Of a DNA stretch of 64,000 bases, positions 4,099-16,288 are shown piece by piece. Position numbers and translations under genes: made by a program. Under the pieces are notes generated by a model, which was given only the letters and a program-made list of their open reading frames with translations, was not told where the DNA came from and made no database searches. The stretch spans positions 192,001-256,000 of the forward strand of contig CBDDPY010000002.1 of assembly GCA_965232515.1 (NCBI GenBank), read 5' to 3'. Source of the DNA: Alphaproteobacteria bacterium (GTDB taxonomy: Bacteria > Pseudomonadota > Alphaproteobacteria > GCA-2731375). The first letter of the stretch is position 1; every line of letters begins with the position of its first letter.

Positions 4099-5151
4099 AT
4101 GGCGACGAACACCGCCTTGATCGCCGGCGCGTTGGGCGTGGTCGGGCGCGCTCTGATCGAGCACCTCGACGGCCTCGACGACTGGCGGGCGATCGGTCTC
4201 TCGCGTCGTCCGCCCGACTTCGAGACCAGGGCAAGGTTCGTTTCTGTCGATCTGCTGGATTCGGAGGACTGCCGGCAAAAGCTCGCCGGCCTGCGCGACG
4301 TCACCCATGTTTTCTTCGCCGCCTACACGCCGCGCCCGACGTTGGCCGAAGAGGTCGGCCCGAACCTCGCCATGCTGTCGAACCTGGTCGGGACGATCGA
4401 ACCGGCGGCCGATGCGCTACGACATGTCCAACTGATGCAGGGCAGCAAGTGGTACGGCAATCATCTCGGACCGTATCGGACGCCGGCGCGGGAAGACGAT
4501 CCGGGGCACATGCCGCCCAACTTCTATTTCGATCAGCAACGCTGGCTCGAGGCGGCGCAGGCCGGCAAAGACTGGACCTGGTCGGCCCTGCGACCCCACG
4601 GCATCATCGGCTTCGCGGTCGGCAGCGCCATGAACCAGCTGACGGCGCTGGCGATCTATGCCGCGATATCGCGCCATCTTGGACTGCCGCTGCGTTGGCC
4701 CGGCAAGCCCGGCGCGTTCACCTCGGTCTATCAGATGACCGAGGCGGCGCATCTGGCCCGCGGCATGGTCTGGGCGGCGACCAGCCCAGCCGCCGCCAAT
4801 CAAGCGTTCAATCTAACCAATGGCGATTTCACCCGATGGTGCAATCTCTGGCCCATCGTCGCGCGCTTCTTCGACATGCCGGTCGGGCCGGTACAGTCCA
4901 TCCGGCTAGAGGACTTCATGGCCGACAAGGAGCCGCTGTGGGCGGAGATCTGCGAACAGCGCCGTTTGCGTAAATTTCGGATCGACGAACTGACCAACTG
5001 GCGCTTCGCCGATTTCGTCTATGGCAGCGACTTCGATCAGATGTCCAGCATGACCAAGGCGCGTCAGGCCGGCTGGCATGAGGTGGTCGATACCGAAGAC
5101 ATGATCTGGCGTCAGCTTGAGCGGCTGCGGCACGAGCGCATCATCCCCTGA
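4099..5151 (+). CDS. SDR oxidoreductase, PRISE (progesterone 5-beta-reductase/iridoid synthase-like) family
   Basis: GALGVVG, GLSRR, QGSKWYG, PNFYF, WSALRP, NQAFNLTNGD, C-terminal RIIP. Confidence 0.85.
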   Translation: MATNTALIAGALGVVGRALIEHLDGLDDWRAIGLSRRPPDFETRARFVSVDLLDSEDCRQKLAGLRDVTHVFFAAYTPRPTLAEEVGPNLAMLSNLVGTIEPAADALRHVQLMQGSKWYGNHLGPYRTPAREDDPGHMPPNFYFDQQRWLEAAQAGKDWTWSALRPHGIIGFAVGSAMNQLTALAIYAAISRHLGLPLRWPGKPGAFTSVYQMTEAAHLARGMVWAATSPAAANQAFNLTNGDFTRWCNLWPIVARFFDMPVGPVQSIRLEDFMADKEPLWAEICEQRRLRKFRIDELTNWRFADFVYGSDFDQMSSMTKARQAGWHEVVDTEDMIWRQLERLRHERIIP

Positions 5152-5489
5152 CACCTTGCGCGCGATTCGGGACCGGCGCTGTCGCCGTCCGTGAGTGAAC
5201 TGCTTCACACACCCGACCGATCGGAGAATCGATAGTGGGACAGCCGACCGTCGCCGGCAGTCCGCACCCGAATCGTCGCCAACATCACCGTCGAACCCGT
5301 CACGTGACATCGCTGCGTCAATTTTTATTGGGACTTTAAGACGTTAATGGTTAATTCTCTGCATGGGCTTGAGGTCGCCGGCATGACGCTGGTCGTTCTT
5401 CGATCCGCCAGCGGCGTGCGAGAGAATGTATGATCTCTGACGGCCATCGAGGCTCACGGAGGGGGGAGGCGCAGGGAGCGCTTGTTCTG

Positions 5490-6929
5490 ATGTGCCATTC
5501 TTGTCGTGCCGTTCGGACGTCTTCCAGCCGGACATGCGGGGCGTTTTTGGCAGCGGTTTGTGCATCGGCCACCCTGGCGGGCACGCCGGCCAGTGCCGTC
5601 ACATTGAAAGATCAACTGCAACTGCTGTTGCGGGACAACCCGCAGATCGCGAGGGCGCGTGATGATGTGGGCGCCGCGCGCGAGGGCGAGAACATCGCCA
5701 ACGCGCCGTTCCTGCCTGAAGTGACGCTTTCGGGCGATGGCGGTTACGAGAACACCGACAGCCCGGCAACCCGACGGTCCGGCCGCGGCGATTTCAGCAC
5801 CAGCCGCTATACCCAGTCGTTGACGGTAACGCAGAACCTGTTCGACGGGCAGGCGTCGACGCAGGGCCGACGGCAAGCCCAGTTCTCGACCCGGATCTCC
5901 GAGCAGACGTTGCGCAGCACGATCCAGTCGGTGGTTCTTGAAGGCGCAACCGCCTATCTCAATGTCTTGCGGCAGTCCGAGCTTGTAAAGCTGGCCCGTG
6001 GCAACGAACGCACGATCCGTATCCAGCTTGAACTGGAAGACGAACGAGTCCAGCGCGGGTCCGGCATTGCCGTCGACGTGCTGCTGGCCAAGTCGCGCCT
6101 GCAGCTGGCGAAGGAACGGCGGGTCGCGTTCGAGACAGGTCTACGCGACGCCGTCAGCCGTTATGCGCAGACGTTTGGGCAGGCGCCGGACGTTGCCGAC
6201 CTGACATCGCCGCAAAGCCCGCGATACTTGCTGCCGCCGGACCTCGGCGGCGCCGTCTCGCTGATTCAGGAAGAAAATCCGGCCATTCGCGCCAGCGGGT
6301 TCGAGGTCGATCTGGCTGACGCGCAACGCAGCTCGGCGCGATCGGGCTATTTTCCGCGCATCGATCTGATCGGCGAACAGAACTGGGAAAAGGACTTCGA
6401 CGGGACCCGGGGCATCGAGCGCAATTACTCCGTGATCGTTCAGTTCAACTGGGATCTGTTCTCGGGCTTTGCCACCCAGTCCGGCGTCGCGCAGGCGGCG
6501 AAGCAGTACTCGGCCGCGCGCGGTAACGCCCGGTTTGTCGAGCGCAAGGCGATTGAGCAGTTGGAGCTGTCCTGGCACGCTTACGAAAGCACCCAAGAGC
6601 GCCGGGAGTTATTAAGGAATGCGGTGAATATCGCCGGCGAAGTATTTGATTCCAGAAAAAGATTACGGGATTCCGGTAAAGAGACGGCGATCAACGTCCT
6701 GGACGCCGAAAACGAATTGCTGAATGCCTGCATCAATTTCGTTAACGCCGATTTCGACAATCAGATCTCGGTGTTTCAAGTGCTTTTTTCGCTGGGGCGG
6801 CTCGATCCGGAGGCCCTGGGCATCGTCGAAGACGTGACGGGAACATCAGCGCTGGCTGCCGACGCGCCGGAGTTGACCGGTGGGGGCGATGCGCTGGCGG
6901 CCGCCGGCTGTCGGATCGAGGACGGCTAG
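5490..6929 (+). CDS. TolC-family outer membrane protein of type I secretion system
   Basis: Signal-like N-terminus, FLPEVTL / YFPRIDL repeats, INVLDAENEL; adjacent to RTX cargo, ABC and HlyD; start uncertain (5430 or 5490). Confidence 0.9.
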   Translation: MCHSCRAVRTSSSRTCGAFLAAVCASATLAGTPASAVTLKDQLQLLLRDNPQIARARDDVGAAREGENIANAPFLPEVTLSGDGGYENTDSPATRRSGRGDFSTSRYTQSLTVTQNLFDGQASTQGRRQAQFSTRISEQTLRSTIQSVVLEGATAYLNVLRQSELVKLARGNERTIRIQLELEDERVQRGSGIAVDVLLAKSRLQLAKERRVAFETGLRDAVSRYAQTFGQAPDVADLTSPQSPRYLLPPDLGGAVSLIQEENPAIRASGFEVDLADAQRSSARSGYFPRIDLIGEQNWEKDFDGTRGIERNYSVIVQFNWDLFSGFATQSGVAQAAKQYSAARGNARFVERKAIEQLELSWHAYESTQERRELLRNAVNIAGEVFDSRKRLRDSGKETAINVLDAENELLNACINFVNADFDNQISVFQVLFSLGRLDPEALGIVEDVTGTSALAADAPELTGGGDALAAAGCRIEDG

Positions 6930-7108
6930 TCCGGACCCGGCGGCGATAACCTGGCGTGATGGAGATATCGCCATTTCTCGTAAAAGCCGCCTTGGTTGCA
7001 CGCCTTTTGCATATTTGCTTTAGAAAACGATAATGACTGGTCAAATCTGTCCCAAACAGGGAATTGTTCCCGTTTCGGCACCATTTGACCCCGTAAGGAC
7101 GCGTATCG

Positions 7109-10100
7109 ATGAACCCTAAGCCAATGGCCACAGACGCTGTCGTGGATCCGCGTGCCGCCGATATGGGCGACTACACGGCTGTGCTCGATGCCGCCGGGCG
7201 GGGCAATCTGGTGGTTGACCAGGATCTGTTGATCCTGGTCGGCGACTATCAGAAGTCGGGCACGGATCTGATTCTGACCGGCCCGGACGGCGCCAAGGTT
7301 CTGGTTCTGAACTACTTCGAATCCTCAACCCCGCCGGATCTGTGGACCGCCGGCGGCGCCCGTGTCGCCAGCGAGACCGCGGCCAAACTGGCCGGCGTGC
7401 ATGATCTGGTTCAGTACGCCCAAGCCAGCGACACCACTGGCGCCATCCAGCCGATCGGTGTGGCCGAGGCCGTGCGCGGCGACGTACTGGCCGTTCGGGC
7501 GGACGGTACGCGGGTCGTCCTGCAGGACGGCTCGCCGGTTTTCCAGGGCGACGTCGTCGAGACGGGCGATGGGGCGAGCGTCGGCCTGCGGTTCAACGAC
7601 GACACCAGCTTCGCCATGCAGGGCAACGGCCGCATGGTGCTCGACGAACTGATCTACGACCCCGGCACCCAGTCGGGTTCCGCCGCGGTGTCGGTGCTGC
7701 AGGGCGCCTTCGTCTTCGTCACCGGACAGGTCGCCAAGACCGATCCCTCGAGCTTCTCCGTCAGCACGCCATTGGCCACGATCGGCGTGCGCGGCACCAT
7801 GGTCGGCGGCACCCAGGGCGATCGGCTGGATATCTATTTCAACGAAGGTGCCGGTTTTATTCAGAATGCCGGCGGCCGCGTCGACATTGACGCTGGCGAA
7901 CGCACCTTCGTGCTGGGTTTCAATCTGATCCCGCAAACGCCGCAGGCGACGCCGCCGGGCCTGTTCGACTCGCTGTTTCAATCGGCGCTGGGCGTGCTGC
8001 CGGCGACGCAGTTCTATACCCCCGGCCAGCGCGGATCGGCCGACGAACCGACCGACGAAGAAGCGCAGGCCGCGGCCGAGGTGGCGCCGGAAGCGGGCGA
8101 GGGCGCCATTCCGGTGGTCGACGTGACGCTGCAGCAGGAGCTGGTCCCGCAGCTGCCGACTCTGCTGAACCTGGCCCCGCTGCCGCCCGGATTGCAGGCG
8201 AGCCTTCAGCGCGGCGGCGCGGCGCGGCGGTCGGACAACGACGACGTCATTTTTGCGGCGTTGAATCAGGCGCCGTTCGCCATCGAATTGTCTGATGTCA
8301 GCGCGTCCGAAGGCGCCGCCATCGGTTCCGTGATCGGCGTGTTGAGCGCCACCGATCCGGACGACGGCGAGCTCACCTTCAGCATCGTCAGCGATCCCGA
8401 CGACCGGTTTGAGATCGTTGGCAACGAGCTGCGGCTGACAGCACCGCTGGACTTCGAGACGCAGCAATTTCACGACGTCGTCGTTCGGGCCACCGACAGC
8501 GAGGGGCTGAGCGTCGATCGGGCATTCGCCATCAGCGTCAGCGACGTGCCAGATACCGTCATCTTCGGCACACCCGGTGACGATGTCCTGGTTGGCGGTC
8601 CGGGCGCGGATCTGTTTATCGCGTCGCCCGGCGACGATGTTCTCGACGGGCTCGGCGGCTCTGACACGGTCGACTACAGCGATTCCGAGACCGGCATCAT
8701 CGCCGATCTGTCGGCCGGCAGCGTCACAGGCGGTTTCGACGCCACGGACACGCTTTCGAATATCGAGAACGTCACCGGAACCGGCCAGAACGACGTGCTG
8801 ATCGGCGATGCCGGCGACAACATTCTGCAGGGCGGCGCCGGCGACGATACGTTGGATGGCGGAGAAGGCAACGACACCCTGCTGGCCGGCGACGGTGACG
8901 ACACGATCATTGGCGGTCACGGCGAGGGCGACGACAATATCGACGGCGGCGCCGGCAACGACACGGTCTCCTATACCAGCGCCGTCGCGGGCATTGTCGT
9001 GAACCTTGAGACCGGCGTCGCGTTCGGCGATCCGGCGATCGGTGTCGATACGCTGAACGCCGTCGAAAATGTGATCGGCGGTCAGGCGAACGACCTGATT
9101 GTCGGCAACGCCGCCGATAATCGCCTCGAAGGCGGCATGGGCGACGATGTTGTCCTTGGTGGCGACGGCAATGACCAGATCTTCGGCGGCGACATCCGGA
9201 CCCGGGAGCCCGTGGTCCTCACGCGCCCCGGCGATGTCTATGACATCTCCGAGGTCGAACAGGTTAACCTGCGCGTCGATTTCGTTTCCGAAGGCGCCGG
9301 CTTCGAGAATACGTTCGGTTATTATCTGGCCGATGCCGACGGCGTGCCGTTGTCCGGCCAGATCGTCTTCGCCAATGTCGATATCGCCGACACGGCCAGC
9401 TTCAACCTCGACGCGACGGCGCTTGCCGGCGCCGCGCAGCTCGGCTTCTTCGTCATTCCCGACGGCTTCGGGCTGAACGACGTCCTAGTCGACGGGGCCG
9501 AGATCGGCTTCGCGTTTGTAGACGGTTTCTGGACCGTGACGCTTGGCGGCGAAGCCTTGGAAGGCGACGGCGCGCCGGCGCTGTTCAGCGATCCAAACTT
9601 GAATGCGGATGGCTTCGATCACGAGATCGACAATGACGAGCCCGGCAATTCGAACTGGGAAGATCTGGCCGGCGGCGGCGATGGCGACTTCAATGACCTG
9701 AATCTCGATATCACGGTTACCGAGATACCCGCGGAAGATGGCGATGACACACTGAGCGGCGGTGTCGGCGACGACCAGATTTTTGGCGGCTCGGGCGACG
9801 ACGTCCTGAACGGGGACGAAGGTAACGACAGGCTGTCGGGCGGCGCAGGGAATGATCAGATCGACGGCGGCGCCGGTAATTTCGACGTCGTGCTCTACGA
9901 CGACTTCGACGGCATCATGGGCGTCGAGGTCGACCTGGTCGCCGGCACCGCGCGCGATTCTCACGGCGATACCGACCAGCTCAGCAACGTCGAGGGCGTG
10001 GTCGGCTCCCGATTCGACGACCTGATCGTTGGCGACGCCGCCGACAACTTGATTGCCGGCGGCGAGGGCAGCGATGTGATGACGGGCGGCGATGGCGCCG

Positions 10101-10441
10101 ACCTGTTCTCCTATCTCAGCCAGGCAGACGGTACCGAGATCGCCGGCAATTCGACTGTCGGCACCACGTCGACCGATCTCATCCAGGACTTCGAGAGCGG
10201 CGTCGACAAGTTCGTGTTCGACGCCACCGAATTCGATCCCGACGCGACCTTTGTCACCATCGGCAGCGCCTACAACGGCAACAACTCGGGTGTACAGTCC
10301 GGCGCCGCGTTCGTCTTCGACGGCACGCACCTGATCTATGACGAAGATGTCACGTCGGAAGGCTATACCGTGGTTGCCGACACCAACGGCCAGCAGGTCA
10401 CCGCGGACGATATCGACAACTCGAACTCGTCCAGTTCATAG
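7109..10441 (+). CDS. T1SS-secreted RTX protein: FecR domain, cadherin-like domain, Ca-binding GGxGxD repeats, DUF4114-like domain
   Basis: GDVVETG...TPLATIGVRGT (FecR); ATDPD...LDFE (cadherin); many GGAGDD nonapeptides; EGAGFENTFGYY...WEDL..GDGDFND (DUF4114-like); DLIQDFESGVDKF C-terminal secretion region. Confidence 0.9.
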   Translation: MNPKPMATDAVVDPRAADMGDYTAVLDAAGRGNLVVDQDLLILVGDYQKSGTDLILTGPDGAKVLVLNYFESSTPPDLWTAGGARVASETAAKLAGVHDLVQYAQASDTTGAIQPIGVAEAVRGDVLAVRADGTRVVLQDGSPVFQGDVVETGDGASVGLRFNDDTSFAMQGNGRMVLDELIYDPGTQSGSAAVSVLQGAFVFVTGQVAKTDPSSFSVSTPLATIGVRGTMVGGTQGDRLDIYFNEGAGFIQNAGGRVDIDAGERTFVLGFNLIPQTPQATPPGLFDSLFQSALGVLPATQFYTPGQRGSADEPTDEEAQAAAEVAPEAGEGAIPVVDVTLQQELVPQLPTLLNLAPLPPGLQASLQRGGAARRSDNDDVIFAALNQAPFAIELSDVSASEGAAIGSVIGVLSATDPDDGELTFSIVSDPDDRFEIVGNELRLTAPLDFETQQFHDVVVRATDSEGLSVDRAFAISVSDVPDTVIFGTPGDDVLVGGPGADLFIASPGDDVLDGLGGSDTVDYSDSETGIIADLSAGSVTGGFDATDTLSNIENVTGTGQNDVLIGDAGDNILQGGAGDDTLDGGEGNDTLLAGDGDDTIIGGHGEGDDNIDGGAGNDTVSYTSAVAGIVVNLETGVAFGDPAIGVDTLNAVENVIGGQANDLIVGNAADNRLEGGMGDDVVLGGDGNDQIFGGDIRTREPVVLTRPGDVYDISEVEQVNLRVDFVSEGAGFENTFGYYLADADGVPLSGQIVFANVDIADTASFNLDATALAGAAQLGFFVIPDGFGLNDVLVDGAEIGFAFVDGFWTVTLGGEALEGDGAPALFSDPNLNADGFDHEIDNDEPGNSNWEDLAGGGDGDFNDLNLDITVTEIPAEDGDDTLSGGVGDDQIFGGSGDDVLNGDEGNDRLSGGAGNDQIDGGAGNFDVVLYDDFDGIMGVEVDLVAGTARDSHGDTDQLSNVEGVVGSRFDDLIVGDAADNLIAGGEGSDVMTGGDGADLFSYLSQADGTEIAGNSTVGTTSTDLIQDFESGVDKFVFDATEFDPDATFVTIGSAYNGNNSGVQSGAAFVFDGTHLIYDEDVTSEGYTVVADTNGQQVTADDIDNSNSSSS

Positions 10442-10556
10442 CGTTCCGTGCGTATCGCGCGTTGGACAAGGCGCGCGACAATCGTTAACGGATTGTTGCC
10501 ATTCACGCTTAATATTGCGGCCGTTGCCCCGGCGACCAGCATGCCAGGACGGTTGC

Positions 10557-12287
10557 ATGACGACGGACAGGACCACTAGCGCTTGGCTGCGGCCGATCCT
10601 CGGATCGGTGCGCGGGATGCTGGCCGAGCTGCTGACGCTGTCGTTCTTCGTCAATGTGCTAGCGCTCGCCGTGCCGATCTTCGTGCTGCAGGTCTACGAC
10701 CGGGTGGTCTCGCAGAACGGCCTGACCACATTGCAGGGATTGCTGATCGGCGTCCTGATCGCGATTGTCTTCGATTTCGTGCTTCGGCAGACCCGCAGTC
10801 GTCTGCTGCAGCGCATGGCCATGCGCTACGACGTCGAGGTCGGCCGCGCCCTGTTCGAGAAGGTTCAGCGGCTGCCGCTGCGGACGCTCGAAGCGCGTCC
10901 GGCGGCGTTCTGGCAGATGCTGTTCCGGGACGTCGAGGTCCTGCGCAACACCGTTGCCGGCCCGCCGGCGATCCTGCTGGTCGATCTGCCGTTCGCCATA
11001 CTGTTCATCGCCATCATCTATGTGGTGGCGGCGCCGATCATCTGGGTCCTGTTCGCCATTCTGCCGCTGTTCGTGCTGTTGGCCTTGCGTTCGGGCAGCG
11101 CCGTTCGGGCGGCGGCCGACGCCGAGCGTGATGCGACGGTGGACCGCGACTCGCTGGTCTCCGACATCATCGGCAACCGCACCACGATCAAGGCGCTCGC
11201 GCTCGACGAGGCCATGCAGCCGCTCTGGGAAGACCGCCACGCATCGACGATCGAGCGCGCTGTGACGCGCGGCCGGCGCGCGGACGGCTATCACAATCTG
11301 GGCCTGTCGCTCAGTATCCTGACCACGGTTGCGATCACCAGCGTCGGCGCGCTGGCGATCATGGAACAGGCCCTGACCATCGGCGCCTTGATCGCCACCA
11401 ACATGCTGAGCAACCGGATCGTCGGCCCGTTCACACAGCTCGTCACCACCTGGCGCGGCATCGTCTCGTTCCGGCAATCGCTGAAGCGCCTGCGCGAAGC
11501 CTTCGATCTCGTCGAGGAGCCGGCGCATGACAGCGTCGAGATGCCGACGCCGAAGGGCGATCTGGAAGCCGACGCGGTGGTGTTCGCCTACGGCCCCAAC
11601 ACGGCCCCGGTTCTCGACCGGATTTCGTTTCGGGTCGGCCCCGGTGGCCTGCACGCGATCGTCGGTCGCAACGGCAGCGGCAAGACCACGCTGATGAAGA
11701 TAATGCACGGGCTTTATGCGCCGGCCGGCGGCCGCATGCTGCTCGACGGCGCCGATATCGGCCAGTTCTCGCGCCGACGGCTGGCACACTGGATCGGCTA
11801 TGTGCCGCAGGACACCGTTCTGCTCTCCGCCTCGATCCGCGAGAACATCGCCAAGGGCTGGGAGGGCATCGGCGACGACGACGTGCTGCGCGCTGCCCGG
11901 GCCGCGGGCGCGCACGACTTCATCGTCGACTTGCCCGAGGGCTACGGCGCCCAGGTCGGCGAGGGCGGCGGCCGCCTGTCGGGCGGCCAGCGGCAGCGTA
12001 TCGCCATCGCCCGCGCGCTGGTCGGCCAGCCGGCGATCCTGCTGCTGGACGAGCCGTCCGCCAGCCTCGACCGGCAGGCGGAGGAAGACCTGCGCGACAC
12101 GCTGATCGATCTCGCCCGCGAGCATACCGTTGTCGTCGTCACCCACAGCGCCATCCTGCTGCCGGCCTGCCACAACATCATGGTGCTGGATCAGGGCCGC
12201 ATCGTCATGGGCGGTCCGACGGCACAGATGCTGCCGCGTCTGTTCGGCAAGGCCGAGCAGCCGGCCGTTCTGGAGCGCAAGGCATGA
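10557..12287 (+). CDS. Type I secretion ABC transporter (permease + ATPase)
   Basis: LQVYDRV, Walker [28 protein letters not shown]; no N-terminal C39-like domain. Confidence 0.93.
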   Translation: MTTDRTTSAWLRPILGSVRGMLAELLTLSFFVNVLALAVPIFVLQVYDRVVSQNGLTTLQGLLIGVLIAIVFDFVLRQTRSRLLQRMAMRYDVEVGRALFEKVQRLPLRTLEARPAAFWQMLFRDVEVLRNTVAGPPAILLVDLPFAILFIAIIYVVAAPIIWVLFAILPLFVLLALRSGSAVRAAADAERDATVDRDSLVSDIIGNRTTIKALALDEAMQPLWEDRHASTIERAVTRGRRADGYHNLGLSLSILTTVAITSVGALAIMEQALTIGALIATNMLSNRIVGPFTQLVTTWRGIVSFRQSLKRLREAFDLVEEPAHDSVEMPTPKGDLEADAVVFAYGPNTAPVLDRISFRVGPGGLHAIVGRNGSGKTTLMKIMHGLYAPAGGRMLLDGADIGQFSRRRLAHWIGYVPQDTVLLSASIRENIAKGWEGIGDDDVLRAARAAGAHDFIVDLPEGYGAQVGEGGGRLSGGQRQRIAIARALVGQPAILLLDEPSASLDRQAEEDLRDTLIDLAREHTVVVVTHSAILLPACHNIMVLDQGRIVMGGPTAQMLPRLFGKAEQPAVLERKA

Positions 12288-13573
12288 GCCGGCTGGACGA
12301 TCTCTATCAACGCTACCCGCTGCCGACCTGGCGGCCGATCGCCTGGATATCCATGCTGCTGGTCGCGGCGTTTATCGGCTGGAGCTTCGTCGCCGAGCTT
12401 GAAGAAGTCGCCAGCACGTCGGGCGAGGTCGTGCCGCAGGGCAAGGTCAAGCTGATCCAGCATCTGGAAGGCGGCATCGTCGACGAGATCCTTGTCGCCG
12501 AAGGCAATGCGGTGGAAGAGGGCGCGCCGCTGGTGCGCCTGGATCTGCCGACGACGGCGATCAACCGCGAGGAGCTGCAGGTTCAGCTCGATGCCCTCTT
12601 GCTCACCCGCGCCCGCCTGAAGTCCGAGAGCGCCGGCGGCGACCTCGTCTTCCCGAAGGCCGAGAGCGAGCGGCATGCCGATCTGGTGGATACCGAGCAG
12701 GCAACCTTCGAAGCCCATCGCCGGCAACTGGACAGCCGCGTGGCGGCGCTGAAAAGCCGACAGGAACAACGACGGTTGGACCTCGCCGAACTGGAAGCGA
12801 AGCAGCGGGCGTTGGAGAACAATCTTCGGCTGGCGCGCGAGGAATTCGCGATCTCGGCCCGGCTGCGCGAACGCGAGCTGACGCCGAAGATCGAGCACCT
12901 GCAGCTGCAGCGCCAGGTCGAGGCGCTCGAGGGCGAGCTCAAGGTGCTGACGCCGACGATTCCCCGAGCACGGGCCGCCATTGAAGAAGCCGGCCAGCGT
13001 ATCACCGAGGAGTTGGAGCAGGCCCGTTCGCGCGCGCTGCAGGACCTGAGCCGCGCCGAGCTGGATATCGCCCGCCTGCGCGAGCGACTGGCGGAAGCAA
13101 CGGACCAGCGTCTGCGCACGACCATCCGCAGTCCGATCCGCGGCGTGGTCAAGAACCTGCGCTACAACACCATCGGCGGCGTGGTCCGGCCCGGCGAGAC
13201 GATCATGGAGATCGTGCCGGCGGACGACAGGTTGGTGATCGCCGCGCAACTGAGCCCGGCAGACCGCGGTTATGTGCAGGTTGGCCATACCGCCCTGATC
13301 AAGATTTCGGCCTACGATTTCTTTCAATACGGTGGATTGGAAGGGCGGGTCACGCAGATCGCGGCCGATACCAACCGGGCGCCCGACGGCACATCTTATT
13401 TCGACGTCGTCATCGAGACCGATCAGTCGTATCTCGATTCCGGTGGCGAGCCGCTGTTGATTCAGGCCGGCATGCAGGCGACGGTCGACATCAAGACCGG
13501 CACCCGGTCGGTGCTGCGTTACCTGTTGAAGCCCGTTCTGAAACTCCAGCACGAAGCGTTTCGCGAACGCTGA
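12284..13573 (+). CDS. HlyD-family T1SS membrane fusion protein
   Basis: IQHLEGGIV, IRSPIRGVV, GGVVRPGETIMEIVP, GMQATVDIKTG.RSVLRYLLKP; ATGA overlap with ABC gene. Confidence 0.95.
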   Translation: MSRLDDLYQRYPLPTWRPIAWISMLLVAAFIGWSFVAELEEVASTSGEVVPQGKVKLIQHLEGGIVDEILVAEGNAVEEGAPLVRLDLPTTAINREELQVQLDALLLTRARLKSESAGGDLVFPKAESERHADLVDTEQATFEAHRRQLDSRVAALKSRQEQRRLDLAELEAKQRALENNLRLAREEFAISARLRERELTPKIEHLQLQRQVEALEGELKVLTPTIPRARAAIEEAGQRITEELEQARSRALQDLSRAELDIARLRERLAEATDQRLRTTIRSPIRGVVKNLRYNTIGGVVRPGETIMEIVPADDRLVIAAQLSPADRGYVQVGHTALIKISAYDFFQYGGLEGRVTQIAADTNRAPDGTSYFDVVIETDQSYLDSGGEPLLIQAGMQATVDIKTGTRSVLRYLLKPVLKLQHEAFRER

Positions 13574-13600
13574 GCCACGCCGCCGCGCCGGTTACGCCGT

Positions 13601-16288
13601 ATGGCCTTCATCAACACGCTTCCGATTATGACCATGGCGCAGCGCCTGTTGCCGCTCAGCCGGGCACAGTTGAGCCTGCGGCGGATTGTGGCGCTCATGT
13701 TTCTGGCAGCCATGCTGGGATTGCGGATCTGGGACCCGATTGTCGTCGAGATGCTGCGCCTGCGCTCGTTCGATCTGCTGCAACGCATAAGTCCGTATGA
13801 GAGCGATAACCGGCCCGTGGTCATCGTCGACATCGACGAGGCGAGCCTGAAGAAACTTGGACAATGGCCATGGTCGCGGTCACTGCTGGGCCAGTTGCTG
13901 GTCGAGCTGCAGCAGCGCGGCGCTGTCGTGGTCGGCTTCGACGTCGTTTTCGCCGAACGCGATCGGCTGTCGCCCGGCGCGCTCGCCGATGTCATCGATC
14001 AGCTCGATGCCGACACGCGCCGTCGTCTCAACCAGCTGCCCAACAACGACTTGCTGTTCGCGCAGATCATCGAGCAGGGACGGGTGGTCACCGGCCGCTT
14101 CGGCCTCTCCTCGATACAGCCCGGCGCGGATCGCGAGCTGGTCCGCAAGTCCAGCATCGCCACCCTCGGCGGGCTGCCGCAGCCTTACCTCTTCAGCCTG
14201 GCGGGCGTGGTGCAGAACATTCCCGAAATCGACCTGGCAGCGGCCGGTACCGGCATGCTCAGCATCATCCCGGAACCGGACGGCATTGTCCGGCGGGTGC
14301 CGGCGCTGCTGCGCTGGGGCGACCGGGTGATGCCGGCCCTGAGTATCGAGATGCTGCGCGTGGCGACCGGTCAGCAAACGATCGCCACCAAGGTCGACGA
14401 AGCCGGCGTCAAGTCGGTCGTGGTCGCCGGCGTCGAGATTCCGCTCGACCGTCAGGGCCGCATGTGGGTGCGGGCCTCGCACCACGATCCCGGGCGCTAT
14501 GTCTCGGCGCAAGACGTGCTGGCGGGCAACGTCGACCGGTCCGCCATCGAGGGTAAGCTGGTTCTGATCGGCGTTTCGGCCGCGGGCCTTCTCGATATCA
14601 AAGCGACGCCGCTCGAAGCCGCCATGCCCGGCGTCGAGGTGCATGCCCAGTTGCTGGAGACGATCCTGGCCCAGGCCAACCTGGTGCGGCCGAACTACGC
14701 CATCGGCATGGAACTCAGCACGGCGGCCGTTGTCGGCATCCTGCTGATCATCTTCGTGCCGATGCTGGGCGCGCGCTGGACCCTCGGCGTGCTGCTGGTG
14801 GTCAGCGTCGCGCTGCTCGACCTGGTCTATTACCTGTTCGCCAACCAACAGCTGCTGATCGATCCGTCGTTTCCGCTGATCACGGCGGCGGCGCTCTACG
14901 CCATGCTGGTCTATTCCGGCTACATGTCCGAGGAACGTCAGCGGCGATACATCCGCCAGACCTTCGGTCAATACCTGTCGCCGGCGCTCGTCAATCAACT
15001 CGCCGACGATCCGAGCAAGGTTAGGCTCGGCGGCGATACGCGGGAGATGACCTTTATGTTTTCGGACGTGCGGGGGTTCACCAGCATCTCCGAGAATTTC
15101 CAGGACGATCCGCAGGGCCTGACCGCGCTGATCAACCGATTCCTGACGCCGATGACGAACGCGGTGCTGCGTCAGAGCGGCACGGTCGACAAGTATATGG
15201 GCGACTGCATCATGGCGTTCTGGAACGCGCCGCTGGAAGACCCGGGGCATGCGTCGCACGCCTGCCAGGCGGCGCTCGACATGCACAAGGCGCTGGATGC
15301 GCTGAACGCCGAGCTGCGCCTGGAGGCGGCTGGCGATCCCACGCGGGCCGAGCACTCCGACTACAGCCTCGCCAAGCGGTACAGTTTGGGCATCGACGGC
15401 GAGTCGGATGCGGCGAAAGCGTTCGAGCTGTTCAAGCGCGAGGCCGAGCAGGGCTTCGCCAACGCCCAATACAGTCTCGGCAAGGCCTATCGCGACGGCG
15501 CCGGCGTCGAGGCCGACCCGGCCGCCGCGGCGAGGTGGTTCCTGGCCGCCGCCGAGCAGGGCTACGCCAAGGCGCAACGCCATATCGGCACGCGGTTGGC
15601 CCGCGGCATCGGCGTCGAGCGCGACGACGTCCAGGGCTTGATGTGGCTGACGCTCGCCGGCCAGGCTGGCCTCGCGGCGGCCGAGGAGGGACGCAAGAGC
15701 CTGATCAAGAACATGACGACGGCGCAGGTCACCGAGGCCGAGCAATGGGCCCGTCTGTGGCGGCCCAGGGTGTCCGGCGCCCGGGCCATCAAGCTTGAGA
15801 TCGGCGTCGGCTTGAATACCGGCCCGTGCGTTGTCGGCAACATGGGCTCGGAGCAACGCTTCGACTATTCGGTCCTGGGCGATGCCGTGAACCTGGCGGC
15901 GCGCCTGGAGGGGCAGTCCAAGAACTACGGTGTCGGTATCGTGATCAGCGAGGAGACCCGGAAACAAGCGCCGGAATTCGCCGCCATCGAGCTCGATCTC
16001 ATCGCGGTCAAGGGCAAGCGCGAGGCCGTGCGGATCTTCGGCCTGGTCGGCAATGCCGAGACGGCGGCCGACGGAAGCTTTCAGGCCCTGATCGCCAACC
16101 ACGAGCGCATGCTTGCCGCTTACCGGGCGCAACGGTGGCAGGAGGCCCGGGAGCTGGTGGCGGCCTGCCAGGAGATCGAGGACCGTTACGACGATCTCTA
16201 CGAGCTCTATCGCGGCCGCATCGCGCAATACGAGGCCGACCCGCCAGGTCCGGATTGGGACGGCATCTTCGTGGCGCAGACCAAGTAG
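13601..16288 (+). CDS. CHASE2-domain class III adenylate cyclase with internal Sel1 repeats
   Basis: VVIVDIDE..GQWPWSR, FDVVFAE, PGVEVHA (CHASE2); TM helices; FSDVRGFT, DKYMGD, GDAVNLAARLE (cyclase); AEQGFANAQYSLG, AAEQGYAKAQ (Sel1). Confidence 0.93.
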   Translation: MAFINTLPIMTMAQRLLPLSRAQLSLRRIVALMFLAAMLGLRIWDPIVVEMLRLRSFDLLQRISPYESDNRPVVIVDIDEASLKKLGQWPWSRSLLGQLLVELQQRGAVVVGFDVVFAERDRLSPGALADVIDQLDADTRRRLNQLPNNDLLFAQIIEQGRVVTGRFGLSSIQPGADRELVRKSSIATLGGLPQPYLFSLAGVVQNIPEIDLAAAGTGMLSIIPEPDGIVRRVPALLRWGDRVMPALSIEMLRVATGQQTIATKVDEAGVKSVVVAGVEIPLDRQGRMWVRASHHDPGRYVSAQDVLAGNVDRSAIEGKLVLIGVSAAGLLDIKATPLEAAMPGVEVHAQLLETILAQANLVRPNYAIGMELSTAAVVGILLIIFVPMLGARWTLGVLLVVSVALLDLVYYLFANQQLLIDPSFPLITAAALYAMLVYSGYMSEERQRRYIRQTFGQYLSPALVNQLADDPSKVRLGGDTREMTFMFSDVRGFTSISENFQDDPQGLTALINRFLTPMTNAVLRQSGTVDKYMGDCIMAFWNAPLEDPGHASHACQAALDMHKALDALNAELRLEAAGDPTRAEHSDYSLAKRYSLGIDGESDAAKAFELFKREAEQGFANAQYSLGKAYRDGAGVEADPAAAARWFLAAAEQGYAKAQRHIGTRLARGIGVERDDVQGLMWLTLAGQAGLAAAEEGRKSLIKNMTTAQVTEAEQWARLWRPRVSGARAIKLEIGVGLNTGPCVVGNMGSEQRFDYSVLGDAVNLAARLEGQSKNYGVGIVISEETRKQAPEFAAIELDLIAVKGKREAVRIFGLVGNAETAADGSFQALIANHERMLAAYRAQRWQEARELVAACQEIEDRYDDLYELYRGRIAQYEADPPGPDWDGIFVAQTK

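Follow-up and report, generated by a model that had tools for sequence, protein, structure and literature searches.

The window analyzed here is a stretch of 64,000 nucleotides from a bacterium of the class Alphaproteobacteria (assembly GCA_965232515.1, contig CBDDPY010000002.1, positions 192,001 to 256,000). It contains a gene for an 895-aa protein whose class III cyclase domain is split, in frame, by approximately 146 aa of Sel1-like repeats (SLRs). Judged from its sequence, the gene product is a receptor-type class III adenylate cyclase—meaning a CHASE2 sensor on the outside, membrane helices, and a catalytic domain on the inside—that is predicted to synthesize cyclic AMP (cAMP). The insert is old and conserved under purifying selection, and it is neither a misassembly nor a recent cassette.

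The CHASE2 cyclase plan and the Sel1 fold are already known, whereas a Sel1 module nested in a class III cyclase is previously undescribed in the literature found. The prediction originally made from the letters of this window had allowed for the split architecture being already widespread and characterized. In databases, it is indeed fairly widespread, and insert-bearing proteins are publicly annotated as 'CHASE2 domain-containing protein' or 'adenylate cyclase'; full-text literature searches, with subscription journals outside their coverage and supplements unread, yielded no publication on a cyclase domain with a nested Sel1 module.

Domain layout and insertion site

Pfam profiles assign three domain families to the 895-aa protein. 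CHASE2 (PF05226) scores 196.8 bits (cut-off 26.3), Guanylate_cyc (PF00211) is matched in two stretches with 63.5 bits (cut-off 21.9), and Sel1 (PF08238) is matched, likewise in two stretches, between the cyclase parts with 55.5 bits (cut-off 30.7). Hydrophobic stretches, as read from the translation, are located before residue 45 and at approximately residues 370–440. For the phmmer search against the PDB, the AlphaFold2 (AF2) model, and the dimer prediction, residues 440–895 were used, to which the term "fragment" refers herein. Cyclase chains of the PDB match fragment residues 10–132 and 290–386 (protein 449–571 and 729–825), and Sel1 proteins match fragment residues 146–281, which lie between both cyclase pieces. 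The matches to solved Sel1 proteins range from E 2e-53 to 5e-32, with 6ok3 reaching E 2.2e-53 over the insert region.

The position of the insert was determined in an alignment of 23 CHASE2 cyclases, 12 of which are insert-bearing and 11 insert-less. The extra residues are contiguous and lie between '...LNAEL..E' and '...L.IGIGINTG', where the insert-less relatives (n = 11) show an alignment gap with a short linker. D489, K531, D535, N764, and R768 are invariant in all 23 sequences; by the known motifs of the family, D489 and D535 correspond to the metal-binding Asp residues, K531 to the substrate Lys, and N764 and R768 to the transition-state Asn and Arg. In the C-terminal tail, W846, R873, W886, and K895 are conserved in insert-bearing and insert-less forms. 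The spacing from FWNAP to VGNMGS was measured in 248 fetched proteins having both motifs (in 22 further proteins, a motif was not found) and is bimodal: 45–67 aa (mode 54) in 121 proteins and 178–212 aa in 126, with a single protein, P0160, at 87. In the 895-aa protein, it amounts to 200 aa, and removal of 146 aa leaves exactly the modal 54.

The AF2 model of the fragment, built with a 98-row alignment, has a mean pLDDT of 89.2 and a pTM of 0.72. Its elements follow in the order β1, α1, α2, β2, β3, α3, nine helices, β4, and the remaining cyclase fold; therefore, in the model, the Sel1 insert sits in the α3–β4 surface loop of the catalytic domain. The blocks of the Sel1 module mostly show a pLDDT of 86–98, and both connecting stretches are less confident (10-residue blocks at 64–76 and 68). 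With Foldseek, the model matches the class III cyclases 6fht, 3r5g, 2w01, and 1wc0 (E 1e-11 to 1e-9) and, over the insert, the Sel1 proteins 6deh, 8sxq, and 6ok3 (E 7e-9 to 5e-7). P0160 (785 aa), one of the 11 insert-less relatives, carries approximately 35 unrelated extra residues at the same α3–β4 position (alignment columns ~760–805). This loop seems to be particularly prone to insertions.

Prediction of two copies of the fragment yields the canonical dimer with an ipSAE of 0.55, compared with 0.00 for the best of three controls, although this pass may reflect memory, as cyclase dimers are already solved. Among proteins solved as pairs of one chain, 20 of 30 attain the mark applied, compared with one of 23 solved as single chains. 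At least 75% of the contacts agree between runs, with a partner pLDDT of 81 or more. Fragment residues 12–41, 62–95, and 303–322 form the confident contacts; none of these falls in the insert (146–281), where residues would at most be among the unnamed, uncertain ones. Hence, the catalytic fold and its canonical head-to-tail dimer are predicted to stay intact despite the insert, and we infer from the models that the Sel1 module is peripheral and flexibly tethered on its two less confident linkers.

What the original prediction said about the gene itself agrees with these data. The split by an in-frame Sel1 module is borne out by Pfam, the divided phmmer match, and the alignment; the catalytic residues are kept; and deletion of the insert would restore the modal motif spacing. 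The checks that it proposed by Sel1 scoring and by dimer prediction led to an insert above the Pfam cut-off and to the dimer just described, with no insert residue named at the interface. The coordinates are collected in Table 1.

Table 1 Features of the split cyclase gene and of the genes upstream of it (window positions)
Feature	Positions	Strand	Basis
Whole gene, 895 aa: CHASE2, transmembrane part, class III cyclase domain containing the Sel1 module, helical tail	13601..16288	+	Open reading frame list/translation, Pfam, full-length homologs
CHASE2 extracytoplasmic sensor domain, residues 35–385	13703..14755	+	Pfam PF05226, E 6.3e-58
Linker helices and N-terminal cyclase half, β1 to α3, residues 449–571, with D489, K531, D535	14945..15313	+	PDB phmmer, AF2, invariant columns
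Insert as delimited in the original prediction, residues 582–729, both CGGGCC hexamers included	15344..15787	+	Sequence, alignment gap, motif spacing
Folded Sel1-like repeat module, nine helices, residues 586–719	15356..15757	+	AF2 helices 147–280 of fragment, Foldseek, phmmer
C-terminal cyclase half, β4 to β8, residues 729–825, with N764, R768	15785..16075	+	PDB phmmer, AF2, invariant columns
C-terminal helical tail, also in insert-less relatives	16076..16285	+	AF2 helices 386–440 of fragment; conserved W846, R873, W886, K895
Upstream cassette travelling with the cyclase	7109..13573	+	Pfam; tblastn
FecR–cadherin–RTX–DUF4114 protein, 1110 aa	7109-10441	+	Pfam
Type I secretion ATP-binding cassette (ABC) transporter	10338-12287	+	Pfam
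HlyD-family protein	12284-13573	+	Pfam

Conservation, distribution, and history of the insert

The age of the insert is apparent from its homologs. In a large protein search, all 120 of the matches listed carry both PF00211 and PF08238, with 55–93% identity over the region; the long FWNAP–VGNMGS spacing is present in 119 of them, and the motif was not found in the remaining one. Homologs down to approximately 45% overall identity, and five families, have the insert in common. In a single pairwise comparison with a same-genus genome, the ratio of nonsynonymous to synonymous substitution rates (dN/dS) of the insert, 0.124, is close to those of the catalytic core (0.104) and CHASE2 (0.118). Averaged over 41 insert-bearing proteins, identity to the query is 48.8% in the insert, 44.8% in CHASE2, and 66–67% in the catalytic halves. 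Residues beyond the generic Sel1 consensus, AQY, YRDG, and WL among them, are kept in at least 90% of 42 proteins.

The insert-bearing form is in the minority. Within 41 related genomes, seven of the 25 from the family of the window have a full-length match that includes the insert, as opposed to none of the 16 from other families. The genome count suggested by the original prediction was run on an even sample of the class and gives eight of 401 genomes from five families (E ≤ 1e-60), a number that may be too low with five candidates scored per genome. Species genomes provided 574 confirmed CHASE2-cyclase loci, and the best 80 of these comprise two with the insert, 74 with short spacing, and four in which the motifs were not found. 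The 150 best representatives at 50% clustering are mostly insert-less proteins of approximately 740–760 aa, with the match breaking at query residues 570–590. One insert-bearing copy (L002, 3900-6509) is located on a 7.3-kb contig of a metagenome-assembled genome labelled Candidatus Cybelea, which is not an alphaproteobacterium; it represents either a transfer between phyla or a binning error. Two proteins of 518 aa, P0094 and P0096, consist of cyclase and Sel1 parts without CHASE2 and start inside the membrane region. They are encoded on contigs of 202 kb and 123 kb and may be real truncated forms or mis-called starts.

The hexamer CGGGCC occurs in frame at 15344–15349 and 15782–15787, as the original prediction had it. 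That this direct repeat marks the boundary of a mobile or recent cassette is not supported, and the repeat, which the original prediction itself had called weak evidence in GC-rich DNA, was rejected as an insertion footprint: the window contains 125 copies on both strands compared with 115.9 ± 11.0 in shuffles, 19 of 100 of which reach 125. Because of this chance frequency, the repeat is silent on how the insert arose.

Misassembly was rejected as well, since the junctions are bridged by assembled contigs of public runs (X1, X3, X4, and X5) from three studies, which together span both of them, as the original prediction had proposed to verify. Run X1, which may be the assembly's own source, provides a 5,466-nt contig over 15199–16100 with 0 differences, and X3 a 536-nt contig across the left junction. 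X4, from another study, provides a 900-nt contig over 15263–16100 with 16 differences; it is an RNA library, the contigs of which cannot show transcription. X5, a marine metagenome of a third study, provides a 435-nt contig over 15482–15916 across the right junction. One joint in an X1 contig of depth 4.3 leads from 15228 to 15801 with 137 letters between. It was not read as a deleted form of the cyclase gene and fits an insert-less paralog or another organism. At window positions 15177–15232, the contigs of all four runs break or branch within the GTIDKYMGD..AFWNAP stretch, which is common to several paralogs; this is an assembly-graph effect and no feature of the gene itself.

The history of the hosts and that of the inserts were followed in separate trees, all of them unrooted, so that gain and loss are indistinguishable. 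The host tree comprises 84 full-length proteins, 42 of each kind, picked by motif spacing before tree building and stripped of the insert columns. They were sampled as every fourth of 97 long insert-bearing hits and every third of 115 insert-less ones, together with named representatives and genome loci. On this tree, the insert state changes four times, at least three changes being forced by starred branches; the CHASE2-only tree requires five changes and the catalytic-part-only tree three. A single clade of insert-bearing hosts is rejected by the approximately unbiased (AU) test, as forcing them together costs 189 log-likelihood units (p-AU 0.0013; quick tree, LG+G4). A clade composed of 19 insert-bearing proteins has two insert-less paralogs as its sister, the first belonging to the window's genome and the second to a same-family genome (support of 98 in the Shimodaira–Hasegawa-like approximate likelihood-ratio test, SH-aLRT). 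A further insert-less paralog encoded in the window's genome is nested in an insert-bearing group (SH-aLRT 99). This same-genome paralog (L091, G000:C2:7065000-7079000, positions 6172-11881) is likely a natural clean loss of the insert. Upstream of it are the same ABC and HlyD genes, plus a weak, C-terminal-only match to the FecR/RTX protein.

The inserts themselves group differently. In a quick tree of 65 Sel1 modules, assessed like the other module tree by SH-aLRT, the 42 inserts form one group (SH-aLRT 97) and, together with four stand-alone Sel1 proteins, are split from 19 further Sel1 modules encoded in the same genome (SH-aLRT 95). In the extended tree (76 rows, 141 columns), a branch with SH-aLRT 100 sets the inserts, accompanied by one long-branch row of another Sel1 gene, apart from the other rows; with too few columns, this 76-row tree does not resolve the stand-alone family as sister of the inserts. 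That all 42 inserts fall into one group makes a single origin probable; that their hosts do not form one clade points to later losses or exchange between paralogs. Hence, one capture followed by losses or exchange between paralogs appears, on these trees, to be the simplest account.

Putative donor and neighboring genes

The best non-self match of the insert in the window's genome is a Sel1 protein with 114 bits and 56% identity, the next Sel1 protein having 70 bits. Stand-alone relatives of this kind (P0269, P0270, P0306, P0318, and kin) are approximately 280 aa long and consist of four to five Sel1 repeats preceded by N-terminal signal peptides, as judged by eye. Their last ~137 residues align with the entire insert, including its terminal helix pair, with 47–56% identity. 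Among database proteins of less than 492 aa, the best single-alignment non-cyclase matches belong to the same SLR family (217–335 aa, 47–54% identical).

In three families, the stand-alone Sel1 protein is encoded directly after mlaC. Within the window's own family, its gene is located 3–4 kb downstream of an insert-less CHASE2 cyclase that is the sister of one insert-bearing clade. One such locus (L087, G000:C2:2156000-2172000, positions 4321-15296) contains genes for a GAF–HD protein (HD_5), an insert-less CHASE2 cyclase, a trypsin–PDZ protease, MlaC, and an exported Sel1 protein, followed by MlaA and/or DUF1611; the order GAF–HD, cyclase, protease, MlaC, Sel1 is conserved at four loci of one family (L087, L088, L089, and L090). 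Adjacency—meaning a Sel1-only match no more than 5 kb away on the same strand of the same contig, with the gene content checked at four of these loci—is present in 17 of 25 genomes of the own family and in none of the 16 of other families. Two other families also have the Sel1 gene after mlaC, and their fetched flanks contain no cyclase; three genomes with insert-bearing cyclases have no stand-alone Sel1 relative at E 1e-18. The adjacency may be local gene order only. The neighboring Sel1 protein was dropped as a functional partner of the insert-less cyclases, as the adjacency is restricted to the own family and the protein looks exported. By sequence, the stand-alone family is a possible donor of the insert and no evidence of a partner.

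Upstream of the split cyclase gene lies a cassette with a FecR domain (35 bits; cut-off 24; Pfam) in its 1110-aa protein. By tblastn, its gene order recurs beside an insert-less paralog and, in four families, at four loci with the insert. As a candidate ligand or partner of the CHASE2 sensor, the secreted FecR-domain protein comes into question. Two papers describe related clusters: in Campylobacterota, CHASE2 cyclases are encoded with a phosphodiesterase and with exported proteins of FecR and TPR type (PMC9239204), and in the mtx cluster a CHASE2 cyclase gene follows mtxA (PMC4439547). Compared with these clusters, the locus in the window likewise has a FecR-type exported protein encoded beside the cyclase but differs in that no separate phosphodiesterase or TPR-type protein is among the neighbors scanned. 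Residues 1–364 of the 1110-aa protein show no match to MtxA in the PDB. A GAF–HD protein and a separate Sel1 protein do occur at the locus of the insert-less paralog.

Possible role of the nested module

Insert-less CHASE2 cyclases such as CyaD1 of Sinorhizobium meliloti and the cyclase beside mtxA have the same CHASE2 domain, membrane helices, class III domain, and helical tail, with 40–53% identity to the 895-aa protein over the full length outside the insert. They differ by a short α3–β4 linker (spacing 45–67 aa), to which approximately 146 residues are added here as an SLR. CyaD1 without CHASE2 makes cAMP constitutively, according to PMC5498481. As for the SLR, the nearest group to the inserts in the 65-module tree are the stand-alone MlaC-linked proteins, which differ as separate exported proteins. 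Legionella LpnE (6deh) and LceB (8sxq) and the Oxalobacter protein (6ok3) have the same repeat fold and clear sequence similarity to the insert; all three are free-standing repeat proteins, and none is nested in an enzyme domain.

The site of the insert has a counterpart in eukaryotic cyclases. Gsα docks at the α3–β4 loop of the C2 domain of mammalian adenylyl cyclase; there, a separate regulator binds at a short loop, whereas here a putative binding module is built into the loop. According to PMC6027212, the α3–β4 loop is a regulatory region of mammalian C2 domains and, in trypanosome receptor adenylate cyclases, accommodates the Delta-subdomain of 36 aa, which is a proposed allosteric site. 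The Delta-subdomain is likewise an extra helical element in this loop, but it consists of two helices with no repeat module and has a small molecule bound in the crystal. It has no sequence relation to the Sel1 insert, and the likeness is in the site only.

Because the Gsα contact region and the Delta-subdomain occupy the same loop, the nested SLR may be a built-in cytoplasmic docking or allosteric module at a known regulatory site, a reading that we consider an even bet. Its ~135–146 aa, folded into nine helices, would hang off the periphery of the intact cyclase dimer and bind a cytoplasmic protein or peptide, and this binding would shift the geometry or activity of the dimer, so that CHASE2 would not be the only input. 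Probably, the 3' half of an SLR gene gave rise to the module in a single capture, with loss or exchange following in some lineages. The purifying selection on the insert and its position at a regulatory loop make the second cytoplasmic input, proposed in the original prediction, reasonable. The gating partner that belonged to that proposal is another matter: no binding partner was identified, and by tblastn the downstream genes (PadR and neighbors) are not conserved at other insert-bearing loci, which weighs against a docking module, as do several further points. The stand-alone relatives carry signal peptides and are probably periplasmic, so their partners are not transferable to a cytoplasmic insert. 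The dimer prediction leaves unnamed residues uncertain, so that the peripheral position is not proven. Moreover, the insert was lost or never gained in close relatives, and the trait changes at least three times on insert-masked trees; with insert-less close relatives and an own paralog nested among the insert-bearers, a working cyclase can therefore do without the module.

The changes of the insert state and the persistence of insert-less relatives would also suit an SLR that is a tolerated passenger—captured once into a permissive loop, kept since clean removal is rare, and without regulatory role. The loop is permissive, as the different segment in P0160 illustrates. However, the dN/dS of the insert is on par with that of the catalytic core and CHASE2, its identity matches that of CHASE2 across at least five families, and it keeps residues outside the generic Sel1 consensus, which makes a passenger unlikely. 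An artefact of assembly or a very recent cassette bounded by CGGGCC has a 6-bp direct repeat in its favor and can practically be dismissed, given the chance frequency of that repeat, the bridging contigs, and the same insert in nearly all matches listed.

Helical or extended peptides from within the same complex are frequent ligands of SLR and TPR modules, and it is possible, if clearly less probable than a docking module, that the SLR acts within the protein or between copies: as an autoinhibitory latch on the linker helices or tail that is released by CHASE2 signaling, or as a link that joins cyclase dimers into larger arrays, with no need for an external partner. Conserved helices flank the catalytic domain on both sides, the pTM of the three-part fragment suggests some defined mutual arrangement, and the locus has no conserved candidate partner gene. 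On the other side, tail and linker are equally conserved in insert-less relatives and hence did not appear together with the insert, which is also absent from the confident dimer contacts. A bolder version of the docking module, rather doubtful at present, regards the nested SLR as a receptor for a cytoplasmic regulator at the G-protein site—a bacterial, hard-wired counterpart of G-protein control—that was captured from the 3' half of a periplasmic SLR gene, in this family located in the operon of a sister CHASE2 cyclase. If true, the cytoplasmic side of the enzyme would carry a copy of a pathway partner module that originally faced outward.

CHASE2 cyclases are common, and their switching is poorly understood. 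A conserved protein-binding module at a loop that two eukaryotic cyclase lineages use allosterically would point to a second, cytoplasmic input in bacteria, and the insert-less paralogs of the same genome are natural templates for swap or deletion comparisons. As a clear domain insertion rather than an end-to-end fusion, for which a probable donor family can be traced and the insert was apparently lost again in some lineages, the split cyclase is also useful for understanding how signaling enzymes gain inputs.

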